Positions 9,761 to 37,184 of a stretch of DNA of 64,000 bases are shown one piece after another (position 1 is the first letter of the stretch; every line of letters starts with the position of its first letter). This DNA comes from Promethearchaeota archaeon (lineage in GTDB: Archaea; Asgardarchaeota; Lokiarchaeia; Sigyniarchaeales; SOKP01). Location: NCBI GenBank assembly GCA_048940445.1, contig JBHLON010000003.1, forward strand, positions 32,001 through 96,000. Reading direction: 5' to 3'. Under the pieces are notes generated by a model that did not search any database, was not told where the DNA came from, and saw nothing but the letters and a program-made list of their open reading frames with translations. The position numbers were made by a program, and so were the translations under genes.

Positions 9761-9878
9761 ATTTTATCATCTTTTTGTTTTTAGTTTGCATTAATCTATT
9801 TTATCTAAACTAAAATTCTCCTTGAAAATATTTAAATATATCGGTTATTGGTTAATTTAAACAACTGAATCCTTTATT

Positions 9879-9923
9879 GTTTCAATTCTAAACAATTTTA
9901 ACTAAATAGTTTCAATTTAAAAG
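9879..9923. promoter_or_regulatory. Paired 15-bp palindromic operator
   Basis: GTTTCAATTCTAAAC (9879-9893) and GTTTCAATTTAAAAG (9909-9923), 30 bp apart; weaker third site at 9848-9862. Confidence 0.55.
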
Positions 9924-10071
9924 ATAAAAAATACTTGAATTTTTCTTTTCATCAAAAATTAAGGTGTTCAAACGATCGGATCCCAACAATTTTAAGATTT
10001 TTTGATCATTCTCCTAAATTTTAAACGAAAATGGTTACCCATTTCTTATAAAATATAAGTATTCGATAATT

Positions 10072-10746
10072 TCAGGTTTTGATTCGTTTTAACAAAGATT
10101 CCCAAAATCTCATTTTAAAATCCCCTGAAAAGTGAAGTGAACGATCCTCTAAACTTATAGCTTTTACTGAACACGCTCTAACACACGTACCGCATTTGAT
10201 GCATTTTTCTTCATTAAATGATACTCTAGTTTTTTTTGAGCCATTATCACTCTGTGATTTAGATTTAATTAGAGCTTCCTGAGGGCATACATCCACGCAT
10301 GACATGCATTTAATACATTTATCCCAATCTATAGAGATTTTACCATCAAAATATACATTTATGATTTTTTTAGATTTTTTAGATTTAATTGATTTATAAT
10401 CTAATCTGGGGACAACCTTATTTTTCACTATCCCTAAATCATCTTTGTTTATTAATTTTTCATTATATTTAAGAGATATTGCTGTTAGGGGGCACATAAA
10501 CATACAAGTCCCACAATATGAACATTTAAGGACATTTGGTGTATCAGGTACGAGATCCTCTGTTTTTACCCGTACTTTTCCCTCTAAATTTCGAGCAGGA
10601 ATAGCATTATTAGGGCAAACTTTGATACAAAAGCCACATCCAATGCATTTTTCCTTATCGATCGCAATAGTATAATTTTCAGTATAAAAATTTAAAATTA
10701 CTTCATTAAATTTATCTGTCTGAATTTCTTTAACTCTTGGATACAA
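10072..10746 (-). CDS. Polyferredoxin, 4x[4Fe-4S] (MvhB/FwdF-like)
   Basis: Four CxxCxxCxxxC motifs; last gene of the hdrCBA-mvhD operon. Confidence 0.85.
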   Translation of the reverse strand: MYPRVKEIQTDKFNEVILNFYTENYTIAIDKEKCIGCGFCIKVCPNNAIPARNLEGKVRVKTEDLVPDTPNVLKCSYCGTCMFMCPLTAISLKYNEKLINKDDLGIVKNKVVPRLDYKSIKSKKSKKIINVYFDGKISIDWDKCIKCMSCVDVCPQEALIKSKSQSDNGSKKTRVSFNEEKCIKCGTCVRACSVKAISLEDRSLHFSGDFKMRFWESLLKRIKT

Positions 10747-30995: not shown

Positions 30996-32777
30996 ATGAG
31001 CAACTTAATAATTAAAAATGGATTTGTATATGACCCGCTCAATAAAATCGACGGCGAAAAGAAAGATATCTACATTAAAGATGGACTCATTGCCGAAAAA
31101 GTTAATACCGACGCAAAAGTAATCGATGCTTCTGGAATGGTAGTGATGCCGGGTGGTGTTGATATGCATACCCACATCGCTGGACCCAAAGTCAACATTG
31201 GACGAGCTCTACGACCCGAAGATAAAGTCCCTGAATCAAACCTAAAGAAAACTAAGACTACACGATCTGGAACAGGTTTTAGCGTGCTCAGTACATGGTA
31301 TACCGGTTATAAGTACGCCCAAATGGGCTATACTACAGCTGTTGAACCTGCAATGCCACTTCTCGAAGCTCGACACACCCATGAAGAATTCCTTGAAATT
31401 CCAATCATCGATAAAGCTGCCTTACCCATATACGGAAATAATTGGTTCGTCCTGAAATATATACGCGACAATGATATTGATAAACTCACTGCTTACGTGA
31501 ATTGGATACTCCAAGCAACCAAAGGATATGCCATTAAAATCGTAAATCCCGGAGGGGTAGAAAACTGGGCATGGGGAAATGTGTGGCTTTTTATAGTCTG
31601 CACCCTAGAAAATTGTGAAAGTTTAGATGACCTAGTTTTCCATTGGAGCGTAACGCCTCGAAAGATTATTGAAAGTTTGGCAAAGGTTGCTGAGATTTTG
31701 AAACTGCCACATTCAATCCATGTTCATTGTAATAATTTAGGGCATCCAGGAAACTTCAAGCATTCCCTTGAGACATTTAAAGTTTGCGAGAGCATAAAAG
31801 CTAATAATGGTCGAAAAACAAGTCTTCATGTAACCCATTGTCAATTTAATGCATACGGTGGTACAAATTGGAATGATTTCACCTCTGGAGCCGGTGAGAT
31901 TGCCGAATACGTAAATGCACATAAGCATCTTACCATTGATTGCGGTCAAGTAGTATTTACTAAATATGCAACCACTACGATGACTGGAGACGGACCATGG
32001 GTCACAGATGAGTATCTTGTCTGTGCATGAAAGTTCGCGCTCCATCATTTAGGTGGGTATTCCAGCTGGGGTTCAAAGCCAGGCATTAAGTGGGTCAACG
32101 GGCAAGTAGAGGCAGAGTCAGGTTCGGGTATCGTGCCCTATTTTTTTGATCCTAAAAATAGTGTGAATGCGGTTCAATGGGCGATAGGTCTGGAGTTGAT
32201 GCTTCTGATAAAGGATCCGTTTCAAATTGGCTTTTCCACTGATCATCCAAACGGAGCGCCCTTTACCACTTATCCGATGGCGTTCAAATGGTTGATGGAT
32301 CGAAAAAGTCGAGACGAGATGCTCAAGAATTCGGTCCATAAGAAGGCAAGTACAGCATCGACTTTATCTGATCTTGATAGAGAATTATCGCTCTACGAGC
32401 TTGCAATTGTCACACGAGCCGGTACTTCGAAGATTCTTGGGATGAGGGATCGCGGTCATCTGGGTGTGGGAGCTCTTGGAGACGTTTCGGTATATAAATT
32501 AAACCCAAATAACTATACGGGACATGATATTGAGAAGGCGTTTAGTTCGACAGCATACACAATTAAAGAAGGCACAATCGTGGTAAAGGATGGGGAAATC
32601 ACGGCAGCTCCAATGGGAACTTTACTGCGTGCTGAAGGCACACTAAAGGAGAATCTTATGGAGGAGATGCTTGATGACGTGCGCCATAGCTGGAGAGACC
32701 ATTATAGCATAAACTTCAATAACTATGCGGTTCAGGATGCTTACGCACCAAAAGAGAAAGTATTCAGAGGAAATTAA
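30996..32777 (+). CDS. fwdA: Formylmethanofuran dehydrogenase subunit A, interrupted by two 30-nt BHB introns; join(30996..31578,31609..32001,32032..32777) = 573 aa
   Basis: PGGVDMHTH, GYTTAVEPAMP, IKIVNPGG, HSIHVHCNNLG, HVTHCQF, STDHPNG. Both track ORFs (30996-32030 and 32133-32777) are in the same frame, separated by one TGA inside the second insertion. Confidence 0.93.
31579..31608 (+). other. Candidate mRNA intron 1 (30 nt, relaxed BHB/HBh')
   Basis: GGGG-AA^A-TGTG(T)GGCT-loop-AGTCTGCA-CCCT-AG^A; excision converts WG-NVWLFIVCTLE-NCES to WGKNCES. Confidence 0.8.
32002..32031 (+). other. Candidate mRNA intron 2 (30 nt, canonical BHB, contains in-frame TGA)
   Basis: CGGAC-CATG-GG^T-CACAGATGAG-tat-CTTGTCTGTG-CATG-AA^A-GTTCG; excision gives DGPWEFALHHL. 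Confidence 0.92.
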
Positions 32778-32786
32778 TTTTTTCTT

Positions 32787-34607
32787 TTATTTTTTTCTAT
32801 TTAGGAATTCAACTTTATTATTTGTTTTCCAATATCCATTCGGTGGCATCTTAATATTCCATTCGCTTCTTAATTTGTGAAATGTACTTTTTGATGTAGA
32901 AAAGCGATCAACCAATTCATAATTACGATATTGATATACTAGATCTTGAAGCTCTTGTTTATTGATACCCAAGTTTTTAAGTTTCATCTTTAAGTTTTCA
33001 AATGCTACACGTGATTCCGAAAAATGTTTATCTTTTCTTTCTAATACTTTAATGTTTGATTTTTTACATAGATTTGTCATTTTATTAAAATATTTTGCCC
33101 CAACAAATAAAGAATATTGAGCTTGTTGCAAGTGTATCTTTCCACTTTTATCTTTATAGTATTTTGATTCAATAGTTCTTAAAATTGAATTATCTACATT
33201 CAATGCATGTTTCATTCTAACTAAGAATTGTTTGGAGGTAGAACAGATACGGGTAGTTCCACTAAATCCATCTCCATCATAATAACCTCGGATATAACCC
33301 ATTAATAATTCTTTTTTTGAATTCATATTAACTCCTTTTGGAATATCTTGTTTATAAAATTTTGGTAGTGATTTTCTTTTTGCCTTTGAAGAGCTGAAAC
33401 CTTGTAATTCCAGATCTTTAGCAATTTTATTATTTACAAAATTTAAATAAGCGTAATTATGGGATTTTCCCGTTTTATAATGATTTCTGGTTCTATATCT
33501 GATACGATTTTTATCTATTCCTATGTCTTGACATAATCTTTTTATTAGGACATCATCTTTTTTTGATAATTCTATGAAGATAACTTTCTTAGGAGTTTTT
33601 CTTTTGGTTTTAATTCCATTTTTGTAATAATGTTTCTTAGTCATAACACTTCCATCAGCCATCAAAAATCCGAGCCAATAAGCTTTTTGAAGAGTATTGA
33701 TTTTGTTAAAATAGTTTATTTTCAAGTTGGGTTTATGCAAGTGCCATTGTTGGCAAGACTTATCTTTTAAGTCAGTATGGTGGCTAACATAACTGTTAAT
33801 ATGATTAACAAGGTTTTTAGCTTTCTCATTTGGAAAGTTAGATTGTATATTTTTTATGAATCTATTCAGAATTTCTTTAGAGAATTTATATATTGGATTA
33901 TATAGTTTAGAATTTGGATTAAATCTTGGCATTATAGCTTGTTGGATGTAATCATATCCTTTCTTGCTGTTGATGTCATAAATATATTTGCTTAATTTCC
34001 AGTAAGATAATTCATCACGGTATTTTTCGTTTGGGACGAGTTTTCCGACTTCTTTTCGTAGTTTTTCGACGAGCCATAAGGTTGAGTACTTGGGGAGTAT
34101 ATTTCCTTGTTTATCTTTTATGATATCGTTATTATGTTGTTTTGTAGAGGAGGGTTGTTTTATTTCATTATTTTTGGAGAATTTTTTATAGAGAAGGGCA
34201 TCTTTGGGGTTAATAATTTTATTTTTTGATTTAATATTGTTGGTTAGCTGTGGTGGTTGGATTTTGTTGAAACTTGGATGTTTAAGTTCGGATTTGTTCT
34301 TGGAAGGTTTGTTGGGAGAGATTAAGATTCCTTTGGGTATTTTTAGTTTGGGGATACCTTTTGGATCAAGCCCCCAGCATTTGGGAGGTGGGGATATATC
34401 ATTAATTTTGGGGTTGAGAATATCTTCTGGTGAGACTATTCTTGGATCAAGAATTTTGTTGTACTGAGGCGTGGTATAAGAACCAGATGGGTATTTAGGA
34501 TGAGTTATTTTATTATGGGGGGTGTCTTCCTCCTGGATTTCAGGGTTGTGGAGTTCTTCTTTGATATCTTTTTTCGGGGATTGTGATTTACATTTACATT
34601 TTTCCAT
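32787..34607 (-). CDS. Free-standing two-motif LAGLIDADG homing-endonuclease-family protein
   Basis: AYWLGFLMADGSV and GYIRGYYDGDGF motifs; Pro/Lys/Asn-rich N-terminus; C-terminal HTH-like ...WNIKMPPNGYW. Confidence 0.85.
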   Translation of the reverse strand: MEKCKCKSQSPKKDIKEELHNPEIQEEDTPHNKITHPKYPSGSYTTPQYNKILDPRIVSPEDILNPKINDISPPPKCWGLDPKGIPKLKIPKGILISPNKPSKNKSELKHPSFNKIQPPQLTNNIKSKNKIINPKDALLYKKFSKNNEIKQPSSTKQHNNDIIKDKQGNILPKYSTLWLVEKLRKEVGKLVPNEKYRDELSYWKLSKYIYDINSKKGYDYIQQAIMPRFNPNSKLYNPIYKFSKEILNRFIKNIQSNFPNEKAKNLVNHINSYVSHHTDLKDKSCQQWHLHKPNLKINYFNKINTLQKAYWLGFLMADGSVMTKKHYYKNGIKTKRKTPKKVIFIELSKKDDVLIKRLCQDIGIDKNRIRYRTRNHYKTGKSHNYAYLNFVNNKIAKDLELQGFSSSKAKRKSLPKFYKQDIPKGVNMNSKKELLMGYIRGYYDGDGFSGTTRICSTSKQFLVRMKHALNVDNSILRTIESKYYKDKSGKIHLQQAQYSLFVGAKYFNKMTNLCKKSNIKVLERKDKHFSESRVAFENLKMKLKNLGINKQELQDLVYQYRNYELVDRFSTSKSTFHKLRSEWNIKMPPNGYWKTNNKVEFLNRKK

Positions 34608-34753: not shown

Positions 34754-35662
34754 GTGGTTGTTGTCGGTTTGATTTTAAATATGATTGTCTTAATTTCATC
34801 ATCTATTTATATTATATTTTTATTTTGGAAAAAAACCAGTACAAAGAACCAGAAACGAGGAAAGTATGATCTTTTTATAAAGAAACTCCAAAAGAAACTA
34901 ATATATAGACCAGATAGTCATATTCTATGGGATAATTTAGGTCTTGCTTATTATGTGAGCGGAGAATTAAATCTTGCGTGTGATGCTTATAAAAAAGCTC
35001 TTGAGACTAGCGAAGATTCAAGGTCTGCTTTACTAGGGATAAGTGATGTTTATGTGGCAATGGAGGAATTTGAATTAGCTTTAGAGTTTTGCTATCAAGC
35101 TTTTAAGGGTAAAGCGGAGATGAAGATTGATGCAACTACAATGGATATGATGGAGCAAGCATTAGTAAAACCTTATATAGGAGATGAACATATTTGGCAT
35201 ACTCTTAGTTCCATTTATGCGAAGATGGAAGATTATGAACAAGCAATCACTGCAGCGGAAAAAGCCTTAGAGATTAATCCTAAATTAAAAGAATCCTGGT
35301 TAATATTAGCATCAATCTATAACAATATTGGTGAACATGATAAAGCTATCGATGCTGCTGAAAAGGCATTAGAGATTGATGCTAAGGAGTATCTTGCATT
35401 GGGGCATAAGGGGTATGCTTATTATAAAAAAGGAAATAAAGACTCGGCATTTGAATTATTGAATAAAGCAATCTCTCTCAATCCGAAATCTGCACATCTT
35501 TGGTATCTATCAGCTGTAATCAATTTAAACATGAAAAATTATGATAAGGCTCTTGAGGCTGTTGATATTAGTTTACATTACAGATCTCATGACAAAGTAA
35601 TACAGAAACTTCGAAAGGAAATTATTGATTTAAGATTGAAAGATTTGGCGAGCAAGGCTTAA
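34754..35662 (+). CDS. Membrane-anchored TPR protein
   Basis: N-terminal TM; repeated W..LG..Y......A..A..KALEI.P motifs. Confidence 0.9.
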   Translation: MVVVGLILNMIVLISSSIYIIFLFWKKTSTKNQKRGKYDLFIKKLQKKLIYRPDSHILWDNLGLAYYVSGELNLACDAYKKALETSEDSRSALLGISDVYVAMEEFELALEFCYQAFKGKAEMKIDATTMDMMEQALVKPYIGDEHIWHTLSSIYAKMEDYEQAITAAEKALEINPKLKESWLILASIYNNIGEHDKAIDAAEKALEIDAKEYLALGHKGYAYYKKGNKDSAFELLNKAISLNPKSAHLWYLSAVINLNMKNYDKALEAVDISLHYRSHDKVIQKLRKEIIDLRLKDLASKA

Positions 35663-35909: not shown

Positions 35910-37184
35910 ATGGTAAGAGAACGTATATTTTGGCAACTTTTTGGTAAACGATTAGTGAGTTATAAAGAACTTGAGAATGGGGAAATAGTAGGTACTGGAT
36001 TTTTAAACCCAATTATAGATAGATTTCGCCTAATAATTATGCTTATTTTTCAGACTAACTATTATAAAAATTATAACTTGGGTCAATGGCGTGGAAAAAG
36101 AGTCGCAAATACATTTTCCCCCCCAATAGGCAGTCGAGCTATGTTCCGAGCTATAAAGAACGTGATTAGAGGAAAAATATTAAGACATGCTCGACCGATT
36201 GCTATGACATTTGCAGTTACGTATAAATGCCAATGCAATTGTGTCCATTGTAGTGCAGGGAAGTTTCAAAAAGTAAACATTCCTGAATTAAGTACAGAGG
36301 AGGCAAAAAGGGTAATTGAAGAAAGCCAAAAGCTTGGAGTATCAATCATAGCTTTTACAGGTGGCGAACCTTTATTACGTAAAGATATTTTTGAGTTGAT
36401 CTCACATGTCAATCAAAAAAAGACAGTTCCGATACTATTTACTAATGGCTTACTTCTTACTCAAGAGAATGTAGATAAATTATCTAAAGCAGGATTATAC
36501 TCCCTCTTTGTAAGCATAGATAGTCCAGTTCCAGATGAACATAATAAATTAAGAGGTATGATTGGTCTTTTTGAAACAGCTATAGAAGGAATTAAACGCG
36601 CGAAAGAGATAGGTATATTTGTTGGATTTTCATCCTATGCTACGCAATCATCTACTAAAGCAGGAAAGTATAAAGAAATTCATGAACTCGCAAAAAAATT
36701 GGGATTACATAATGTGATGTTATTTGATGGTGTTCCAACTGGAAAAATCTTGAAAGATACAAGAGAACTTCTAACAGTGGAGCAACATGAAGAAATTCGT
36801 GAATTTTCATCAAGATTACATAAAAGTAAAATTGTTCCCCCGCTCTCTTCACAATCTTGGCAAAATTCTATTGAATCTTATCTTGCAGGTGTTGGATGTT
36901 TAGCAGCATATATTCAATACTATATCACAGCATATGGGGAGGTAACTCCATGTGACTTTACTCCTTTATCATTTGGTAATATTCGTGATGAACCTTTAAA
37001 GAAAATTTGGATAAAGATGATCCATCATCCCGTTTATAGACATCGAGTAACTGCTTGTAGAATGCAGAATGCAAAATTTCGCTACTTTTATATTGATCCA
37101 ATTCCTGATGAGGTTAAACTTCCATATGATATCAATAAACTTCCAGCGGTAGATTACCGAAAAGAACAAATTCCTAATAATTAA
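35910..37184 (+). CDS. Radical SAM/SPASM-domain protein
   Basis: CQCNCVHC, FTGGEPLLR, GCLAA...GEVTPCDF, C-terminal CRM. Confidence 0.92.
   Translation: MVRERIFWQLFGKRLVSYKELENGEIVGTGFLNPIIDRFRLIIMLIFQTNYYKNYNLGQWRGKRVANTFSPPIGSRAMFRAIKNVIRGKILRHARPIAMTFAVTYKCQCNCVHCSAGKFQKVNIPELSTEEAKRVIEESQKLGVSIIAFTGGEPLLRKDIFELISHVNQKKTVPILFTNGLLLTQENVDKLSKAGLYSLFVSIDSPVPDEHNKLRGMIGLFETAIEGIKRAKEIGIFVGFSSYATQSSTKAGKYKEIHELAKKLGLHNVMLFDGVPTGKILKDTRELLTVEQHEEIREFSSRLHKSKIVPPLSSQSWQNSIESYLAGVGCLAAYIQYYITAYGEVTPCDFTPLSFGNIRDEPLKKIWIKMIHHPVYRHRVTACRMQNAKFRYFYIDPIPDEVKLPYDINKLPAVDYRKEQIPNN

Follow-up and report, generated by a model that had tools for sequence, protein, structure and literature searches.

A free-standing LAGLIDADG gene beside a mini-intron-bearing fwdA gene in an Asgard archaeon: a candidate for collaborative homing

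The gene for formylmethanofuran dehydrogenase subunit A (fwdA) of a Promethearchaeota archaeon, a Loki-type Asgard genome (G000; comparison genomes are labelled G0xx or G1xx), carries two putative tRNA-type mini-introns of 30 nt and is located tail to tail with a free-standing LAGLIDADG gene. From the comparison of related genomes we consider it somewhat probable that the latter encodes a homing endonuclease specific for fwdA and that a mini-intron interrupts its target, in which case the pair would be the archaeal counterpart of collaborative homing in phages.

According to the scheme that we favour, the endonuclease would belong to a lineage specialised on fwdA and would recognise a highly conserved stretch of the intron-less gene, in the G000/G018 sub-lineage most likely the WGKN-coding site. 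The resulting double-strand break would be repaired from an endonuclease-bearing genome, and the nuclease gene would thereby be copied together with flanking fwdA sequence. The nuclease-bearing allele would be protected because a BHB mini-intron of 30 nt, devoid of an ORF, divides the target at the DNA level. Since EndA and the RtcB ligase would excise this mini-intron from the mRNA, FwdA would still be made. The second intron, at GPW/E, may be a mini-intron of the same build but of greater age, linked in G144 to a sister sub-lineage of the endonuclease. In this scheme we infer where the enzyme cuts, that the intron gives immunity and which way transfer runs, and a single nuclease cannot easily account for two introns that lie 0.75 and 1.17 kb away.

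Results

The fwdA locus

In the window analysed, a stretch of 64,000 nucleotides, fwdA occupies one reading frame on the forward strand (30996-32777) with a single in-frame TGA at 32028-32030. An alignment with 20 fwdA genes of the same genus revealed two exact inserts of 30 nt, which are missing from ~100 further fwdA genes in the order. Exon 1 (30996-31578), identified by a match to NCBIfam TIGR03121/NF042911 and by the congener alignment, ends with W-A-W-G and the first base of a Lys codon. It is followed by intron 1 (31579-31608), which is in frame and stop-free and whose boundary is ambiguous by 1 nt, an A being present on either side. Exon 2 (31609-32001) ends with G-D-G-P-W plus a G, intron 2 (32002-32031) holds the TGA, and exon 3 (32032-32777) includes the stop codon at 32775-32777, all on the forward strand. 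Upon removal of the inserts the protein reads WAWGKNCE and GDGPWEFALHH, which is exactly the conserved sequence and bears out the introns that the sequence-only reading had placed at WGKN and GPWE.

A spacer of only 9 nt (32778-32786) separates the convergent stop codons of fwdA and of the two-motif LAGLIDADG gene, which is encoded on the reverse strand (32787-34607; 606 aa). The ORF lies outside any host ORF and outside both introns; the tail-to-tail position and the free-standing character that had been claimed for this gene were thus confirmed by the ORFs and motifs. No second copy of a displaced or duplicated fwdA 3' exon beyond the nuclease gene was found by tblastn in the window or in the whole genome, and therefore a displaced- or duplicate-exon architecture does not apply to G000.

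Distribution and mobility of introns and nuclease genes

Class-wide scans for inserts at the two fwdA sites covered 161 genomes. Introns at site 2 were found in six genomes only (G000, G017, G045, G119, G133 and G144), which represent at least four separate lineages, and introns at site 1 in two only (G000 and G099). The site-1 introns of G000 and G099 are non-homologous copies, and within its genus intron 1 is confined to G000. A relative of the nuclease gene is located 17 nt tail to tail from fwdA in G144 and 0.86 kb upstream of fwdA in G099, so that both genomes repeat the arrangement of a free-standing nuclease gene by a fwdA gene with an ORF-less intron. In G045, G119 and G133, intron 2 is present without a nearby nuclease gene (in G119 the contig extends only 567 nt past fwdA). 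The proposal that intron and nuclease move as one unit is compatible with G000, G099 and G144, where the two co-occur, but not with these three genomes with the intron only, nor with G018, which has the nuclease only.

The G018 gene, an orthologue with 58% identity, is inserted exactly between the fwdA stop codon and a 98-aa ORF that directly abuts fwdA in G012 and G045, where the site is empty. This copy is without the C-terminal ~75 aa, and in G017 only decayed remnants of the nuclease gene were detected. We regard the endonuclease gene as mobile, since close relatives either carry it or show the same site intact and empty.

Gene conversion and the candidate cut site

At site 1 of the intron-less fwdA gene of G018, the codons GGN AAR AAY are replaced by TCA CGT AAC, and G197S is among just three changes that G018 alone shows at columns invariant elsewhere. 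Substitutions unique to G018 number 7 in nt 1-575 and 24 in nt 576-720, with the site-1 junction at nt 583; a divergent conversion tract starts exactly at site 1. The 3' ~320 nt of this fwdA gene, beside the endonuclease gene, are divergent as well. G045 displays donor-like sites at nt 951-972, directly upstream of intron 2, and sister-like sites elsewhere, and its conversion tract around intron 2 is local (~nt 860-975) and ends short of the fwdA 3' end. From the G045 mosaic and from the spread of the carriers over at least four lineages we conclude that intron 2 is mobile as DNA and has passed from one lineage to another by gene conversion. With respect to the target site of the nuclease, the G018 evidence favours WGKN; the breakpoint at site 1 could equally have arisen when an intron-less donor converted an intron-bearing allele and so erased its intron.

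These tracts bear directly on the possibility of intronless homing, in which the nuclease would cut at or near its own insertion point, that is, the fwdA 3' end or the spacer, and the introns would be unrelated BHB passengers that are co-converted or persist nearby and confer no immunity. Such a process would fit the divergent fwdA 3' end of G018, a rearrangement around a methyltransferase gene in G133 that includes a duplicated fwdA 3' end, and the nuclease-free introns of G045, G119 and G133. It would also fit the location of all five G000 paralogs and of the G144 copy, which lie tail to tail at 9-24 nt from the stop codon of their neighbour and point to a preferred insertion at gene 3' ends. 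However, the G018 tract begins exactly at site 1, which is rewritten, rather than at the 3' end, the G045 tract does not reach that end, the site-1 intron of G099 is present although the nuclease gene lies upstream of fwdA, and intergenic spacers are poorly conserved targets. We therefore regard intronless homing as an explanation to be taken seriously but rather unlikely, and prefer cleavage within a conserved fwdA site that is disrupted by a mini-intron.

Linkage of nuclease genes to disrupted sites

The sequence-only reading had allowed for a coincidental adjacency, and mini-introns and free-standing LAGLIDADG genes might indeed each favour conserved genes and meet at fwdA without any functional link. 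Several such nuclease genes are present per Asgard genome, five in G000 and up to seven matches in congeners, which would make chance encounters easier. In the survey of fwdA loci, a nuclease gene or its remnant was found to adjoin fwdA in four of the seven intron carriers and in one (G018) of ~105 intron-less loci. Fisher's test on these counts gives ~3e-5, a value that treats related genomes as independent. When only phylogenetically independent contrasts were considered (n = 4), three of the four went in the same direction (sign-test p = 0.25), or all four if the rewritten site of G018 is counted (p = 0.125), and such contrasts are too few for significance. The expected co-occurrence is thus seen in the raw counts and falls short of significance in the independent comparisons.

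On the other hand, a WGKN or GPWE site is disrupted in all four genomes with a fwdA-linked nuclease, by an intron in G000, G099 and G144 and by rewritten codons in G018, compared with only 3 of ~105 loci without a nuclease. In a tree of 84 family members, the fwdA-linked nucleases of these four genomes, which belong to two genera, fall into a single clade (SH-aLRT 95), and the recombination boundaries described above match the intron sites. A LAGLIDADG homologue in G054 was considered as a further fwdA-linked gene and rejected; it is located on a separate 4.4-kb contig and falls into a different clade.

A second nuclease-intron pair was identified in G000 itself, where a GH38 gene contains another 30-nt BHB intron at a distance of ~285 nt from a paralogous LAGLIDADG gene. 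The idea that other LAGLIDADG genes would likewise neighbour BHB-interrupted genes is supported by this pair but not by three of the five G000 paralogs, whose neighbour genes (including ACAD and UPF0047) show no 10-aa gap in Pfam alignments, which is a weak exclusion of introns. A strict genome-wide scan for BHB helices yielded ~125 matches per intron length and no peak at 30 nt, and was unspecific in this AT-rich genome. Filtering BHB candidates by ORF repair recovered intron 2 along with a small number of further plausible candidates, most of the output being gene junctions. Applied to 160 distant LAGLIDADG loci, this filter, which has low power and misses stop-free in-frame introns and relaxed BHBs, returned 0.046 candidates per kb near the genes versus 0.059 far from them and hence no enrichment. 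While this crude scan is what coincidence would predict, the single clade, the four disrupted sites, the GH38 pair and the matching boundaries all speak against it, and with the reservation that the independent contrasts number only four we consider coincidence very unlikely.

The LAGLIDADG protein

The 606-aa protein consists of a Lys/Pro/Asn-rich N-terminus, a region conserved in the orthologue alignment (~aa 170-290), a LAGLIDADG core (~aa 290-530) and a conserved C-terminal tail. Motif 1 (YWLGFLMADGS; 33648-33680, reverse strand) contains the acidic residue D318 and motif 2 (YIRGYYDGDGF; 33264-33296, reverse strand) the acidic residue D446. Both aspartates are invariant in orthologues, of which the closest further ones (P0003 and P0004) are 51-57% identical; in a 33-sequence alignment the equivalent residues are D34, which never varies, and D162, with a conservation of at least 90%. 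The Pfam match to LAGLIDADG_3 (PF14528; E = 2.7e-4) scores 21.6 bits and stays under the gathering cut-off of 22.5 bits, which paralogs in the same genome clear with 33-43 bits. A sequence-profile search of PDB sequences with the protein gave no match, and membership in the tandem alpha-beta-beta-alpha-beta-beta-alpha fold was therefore settled by structure. An AF2 model of aa 285-606 (pLDDT 93, pTM 0.85) was compared with the PDB using Foldseek, and the top 48 matches were all LAGLIDADG enzymes at probability 1.0, among them I-DmoI, I-OnuI, I-AniI, I-SceI and PI-PfuI, with target-normalised TM values of up to 0.60 (I-DmoI). Taken together, the ORF looks like a functional monomeric two-domain LAGLIDADG homing endonuclease, with an activity that is predicted from sequence and model.

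A domesticated DNA- or RNA-binding protein with a maturase-like or regulatory role, and hence no nuclease action on fwdA DNA, might be suspected from the best Foldseek match, the bI3 maturase, and from the long N- and C-terminal extensions. This is highly improbable given that aspartates are conserved at both catalytic positions, that the sporadic distribution, the decay in G017 and the truncation in G018 are as expected of a selfish gene, and that BHB introns are spliced by EndA, as established for archaea (PMC7714728), so that a maturase is not needed.

Structure of the mini-introns

Intron 2 folds into a canonical hBHBh' structure, GGAC CAUG GG↓U [10-bp hairpin] CAUG AA↓A GUUC, in which cuts after the second bulge base (arrows) yield exactly the 30-nt insert; the fold has an energy of -24 kcal/mol (z = -2.9). 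Across the six carriers 92% of the cells are paired, and six pairs are changed on both sides, including pairs of the central helix (A-U to U-A) and of the exon-exon outer helix (C-G to G-C). The observed pairing score was reached by none of 500 shuffles, and slid controls were 25-51% paired. Intron 1 is a relaxed BHB with a 4-bp central helix (GGGG/CCCU), the bulges AA↓A and AG↓A and an inner hairpin; the outer helix is absent at the 3' site, and the z-score of the fold is only -0.5. The genome encodes the splicing machinery, namely two paralogous EndA-domain ORFs (scores of 104 and 72 bits) together with a single RtcB (560 bits). On this comparative evidence the fwdA inserts are BHB (tRNA-type) introns, and their splicing is predicted.

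That fwdA is instead a pseudogene, or tolerates 10 extra residues and has its TGA recoded or read through, is barely credible: the frame does stay open through intron 1, but fwdA is single-copy in the G000 genome, otherwise intact and strongly conserved, both inserts interrupt invariant motifs (WAWGKN and GDGPWEF) with the same BHB geometry of 1+23+4+2 nt, and intron 2 shows compensatory changes across six genomes.

Discussion

The fwdA locus suggests a DNA-level mechanism, testable at the bench, by which mini-introns may spread in protein genes. In a wider version, which we put forward tentatively and hold to be less probable than the fwdA scheme itself, the Asgard family of free-standing LAGLIDADG genes would drive the fixation and lateral spread of tRNA-type mini-introns in protein genes. 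The introns would persist by immunising conserved sites against cleavage, and successive nuclease sub-lineages would each have left their own fwdA intron, at WGKN and at GPWE. If this is true, nuclease-intron pairs would provide a general way for Asgard archaea to gain mRNA introns. Among archaea these are the lineage closest to eukaryotes, and the pair described here therefore bears on the colonisation of protein genes by introns before the spliceosome. In addition, the genome comparison suggests a set of LAGLIDADG enzymes with candidate targets (fwdA WGKN and GPWE).

In the literature searched, cbf5 is essentially the sole protein-coding gene of archaea for which BHB introns are documented, with their origin and spread unexplained, and we found no paper describing a fwdA intron paired with an adjacent nuclease. 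The cbf5 pre-mRNA intron of Desulfurococcales and Sulfolobales (PMC2738675) resembles the fwdA introns in being a BHB intron of a protein gene, in its gain and loss among relatives and in its presumed splicing by EndA, but it belongs to another phylum and another gene, and an adjacent homing endonuclease is not reported for it.

Intronless homing by the Seg and Mob enzymes of phage T4 (PMC3984707, Fig. 5c; PMC2988022) likewise involves an endonuclease gene between conserved genes, its presence or absence and co-conversion of the flanks. There is no intron in those cases, whereas the conserved sites of fwdA are either interrupted by mini-introns or altered in their codons.

Archaeal rRNA BHB introns encode LAGLIDADG homing endonucleases such as I-DmoI, I-PorI, I-ApeI and I-PogI (PMC2602781, PMC4496867). 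The fwdA system shares with them the archaeal host, the two-motif monomeric fold (TM ~0.6 to I-DmoI) and BHB introns, whose mobility at the DNA level would depend on the nuclease. In contrast to these systems, the fwdA-linked nuclease gene is not intron-encoded but located at a distance of 0.75-1.2 kb on the opposite strand, the intron is too small for an ORF, the host gene is protein-coding rather than an rRNA gene, and the 606-aa protein has ~290 extra N-terminal and ~75 extra C-terminal residues.

The closest parallel to the proposed mechanism is phage collaborative (trans) homing, as described for MobE/I-TevIII of T4 and for a cyanophage in which free-standing F-CphI lies next to the ORF-less group I intron of psbA (Zeng, Bonocora and Shub, 2009, as cited in PMC3984707; PMC2790892). 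In both settings a free-standing endonuclease gene adjoins a conserved gene with an ORF-less intron, and the intron insertion site is proposed to be the nuclease target, so that the intron shields the allele and both spread by break repair; for fwdA this cleavage site is a prediction. The fwdA introns differ in being 30-nt protein-spliced BHB introns rather than self-splicing group I ribozymes, the nuclease is of the LAGLIDADG type rather than EndoVII-like or HNH, and the host is a cellular archaeal chromosome with two introns in the gene. If our reading is correct, collaborative homing extends from the group I introns of phages to the protein-spliced introns of archaea.

Results

The fwdA gene (30996–32777, forward strand) is a single reading frame with one in-frame TGA (32028–32030). 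Both halves were assigned to formylmethanofuran dehydrogenase subunit A (NCBIfam); the first half carries about 10 extra residues, and a gap separates the two. Alignment with 20 fwdA genes of the same genus delimited two forward-strand inserts of exactly 30 nt each, intron 1 (31579–31608) at the WGKN-coding site 1 and intron 2 (32002–32031) at the GPWE-coding site 2. Removal of both yields WAWGKNCE and GDGPWEFALHH, matching the invariant sequence of 22 congeners. Since this genome (G000) holds a single fwdA copy, the gene must be spliced to be functional; no displaced fwdA exon was found at the locus. A 606-aa ORF with two LAGLIDADG motifs (32787–34607, reverse strand) has its stop 9 nt from that of fwdA. 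Reading frames and congener alignment confirm the sequence-only reading's description of the inserts and this ORF.

Intron 2 has a textbook hBHBh' fold (GGAC-CAUG-GG/U, a 10-bp hairpin and CAUG-AA/A-GUUC; −24 kcal/mol, z = −2.9), and cutting after the second bulge base (slash) releases exactly 30 nt. Pairing holds in 92% of cells across the six carrier genomes, and six pairs are altered on both sides, among them pairs of the central helix (exon CCATGGG and intron CATG in one genus, CCTTGGG and CAAG in the other) and of an exon-exon outer helix. The covariation score was reached by 0 of 500 shuffles, and slid controls scored far lower. Intron 1 shares the geometry (1+23+4+2 nt; central helix GGGG/CCCU, bulges AAA and AGA) and is classed as a relaxed bulge-helix-bulge (BHB) because it lacks the outer helix at the 3' site. 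The splicing genes of G000 comprise two for EndA-domain proteins and one for RtcB.

Pattern scans of fwdA in all 161 genomes of the class revealed site-2 inserts only in G000, G017, G045, G119, G133 and G144, and site-1 inserts only in G000 and G099, the latter being 31 nt long, offset by 1–3 nt and not homologous in sequence to intron 1 of G000. In the fwdA tree, intron-2 carriers lie within groups of intron-less relatives, in at least four separate lineages. Because the carriers are scattered and the copies have position, length and a (U/C)AUCU(U/C) loop in common, lateral spread of intron 2 is more economical than many precise losses. The tree also departs from genus assignment (G099, G095 and G125 of g22 with g1 sequences; G003 and G007 of g1 with g22), which may reflect two fwdA types or past exchange. 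In G133 (L235, C35, 5738–7827) the fwdA 3' end (aa 487–572) occurs twice, near-identical, around a 275-aa methyltransferase-like ORF; its intron 2 differs by 1 nt from that of G144, and no LAGLIDADG gene lies nearby. In G062 (L213, C164:323–2008) fwdA is of normal length but has in-frame TAG and TAA codons, which may point to a pseudogene or to misassembly.

The 606-aa ORF scored just under the threshold on Pfam LAGLIDADG_3 and had no match among the PDB sequence profiles searched. An AlphaFold model of aa 285–606 (33 relatives in the alignment) reached pLDDT 93, and its top 48 PDB neighbours were all LAGLIDADG enzymes, including I-DmoI, I-OnuI, I-AniI, I-SceI, PI-PfuI and the bI3 maturase. 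The aspartates of both motifs are conserved among relatives. The family has five members in G000 and recurs widely across Asgard MAGs carrying the labels Promethearchaeota, Hodarchaeota, Helarchaeota, Thorarchaeota, Odinarchaeota, Hermodarchaeota and Atabeyarchaeia.

Among 42 genomes of the genus, only G018 has a close orthologue (58% identity, without the conserved C-terminal ~75 aa). It lies precisely at the junction of the fwdA stop with a 98-aa ORF; this ORF abuts fwdA directly at the empty site of G012 and G045. Past the nuclease gene of G000, the gene order no longer matches that of relatives: a TPR protein (34754–35662) and a radical-SAM protein (35910–37184) take the place of the 98-aa ORF of G012, G018 and G045. 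In G017, the closest relative of G000, all that remains downstream of fwdA is decayed pieces of the second LAGLIDADG half. There are two (L036, C17; 9410–9706 and 10579–10701), separated by a 224-aa signal-peptide ORF (9845–10519), and these may be what is left of two successive nuclease genes. In a second genus, G144 carries a 1089-aa relative (L211, 114–3383) tail-to-tail with fwdA, 17 nt apart, and G099 a 1205-aa relative (L214, 8732–12349) 0.86 kb upstream of it, both with very long N-terminal extensions. The nucleases of G000, G018, G144 and G099 form one clade (SH-aLRT 95, quick tree of 84 family cores), and the endonuclease lineage is therefore tied to fwdA. The clade also takes in two metagenomic orthologues and one copy between purQ and purS; this copy (L208, G115:C11, 1270–2613), tail-to-tail with purS, suggests a target-gene switch.

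In G018, the site-1 codons read TCA CGT AAC in place of GGN AAR AAY, and G197S is one of only three changes unique to this genome at otherwise invariant columns. Its unique substitutions number 7 in nt 1–575 and 24 in nt 576–720 (simulated p = 0.0025 for the cluster), the intron-1 junction being nt 583. Identity to sister genes runs as a mosaic, from 92–94% (nt 1–575) through 74–76% (nt 576–720), ~82% (nt 721–1100) and ~91% (nt 1101–1400) to ~80% (nt 1401–1719) beside the nuclease gene. Such a pattern would be expected from a site-1 break mended from a divergent nuclease-bearing donor; alternatively, it could be the scar of an intron taken out by conversion.

Discussion

Our best reading, to which we give somewhat better than even weight, is that a fwdA-specific homing nuclease cuts intron-less fwdA and is copied in, the mini-intron protecting the resident allele. 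The free-standing enzyme would cut a conserved site, WGKN being favoured for the G000 sub-lineage, and break repair would copy in its gene plus flanking fwdA sequence. The mini-intron would split the target in DNA, and EndA and RtcB would take it out of the RNA. Intron 2 would be a mini-intron of greater age, mobile in its own right and associated with the sister nuclease sub-lineage.

Intronless homing from the fwdA 3' end, with the introns as passengers, is the strongest competitor, though we think it rather unlikely. All five LAGLIDADG-family genes of G000 (C47, C78, C119, C49, C71) end 9–24 nt from the stop of a convergent neighbour (fwdA, phosphodiesterase, acyl-CoA dehydrogenase, UPF0047 and a 193-aa unknown), and this stop-proximal placement is a recurrent insertion geometry. 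No introns were evident from the Pfam alignments of the last three neighbours. Counting against our best reading, the one nuclease at fwdA lies 0.75–1.2 kb from two introns. In G045, fwdA shows G000/G017-like states at nt 951–972, directly upstream of the intron, and sister-like states elsewhere, a conversion tract that is short and has its centre at the intron rather than at the 3' end.

Coincidental adjacency is improbable in our judgement. A nuclease gene or remnant lies within 1.5 kb of fwdA in four of seven intron carriers (G000, G017, G099, G144), and beside intron-less fwdA only in G018 among ~105 loci (Fisher ~3e-5, by hand arithmetic on related, non-independent genomes). Phylogenetically independent pairs gave four contrasts only, three in the same direction (p = 0.25), or four of four (p = 0.125) with the rewritten G018 site counted as a disruption; fewer than six pairs cannot attain 0.05. 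The co-occurrence anticipated by the sequence-only reading holds in the raw counts, while four independent contrasts could not have reached significance. Intron and nuclease are often apart (G045, G119, G133, G018), and a crude scan found no enrichment of ORF-interrupting BHBs near 160 distant family members. A check of whether other LAGLIDADG genes of G000 neighbour BHB-interrupted genes was positive in one case: on contig C78 (L040:9337–9440), a divergently oriented paralog (66098–67105, reverse strand) lies ~285 nt from a 30-nt BHB intron that splits a GH38 alpha-mannosidase (67336–70166, forward strand) between THWDRE and WYLPF. This paralog has 42% identity and is also tail-to-tail with the phosphodiesterase gene (18 nt); the insert holds a TGA and has the central helix CGUG/CACG.

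A domesticated or maturase-like role for the protein is very improbable, both motif aspartates being conserved, and that the inserts are not introns is the least credible reading of all, given the intron-2 covariation.

BHB introns in mRNA have been described for cbf5 (PMC2738675), and LAGLIDADG enzymes are encoded inside rRNA BHB introns (PMC2602781, PMC4496867). The literature searched contained no account of BHB mini-introns in an Asgard protein gene that are paired with a free-standing LAGLIDADG gene. The proposed scheme would work like the collaborative homing described in phages (PMC3984707), of which the fwdA locus is a candidate, not a proven, member, and whose defining feature is an endonuclease target that coincides with the intron insertion site.
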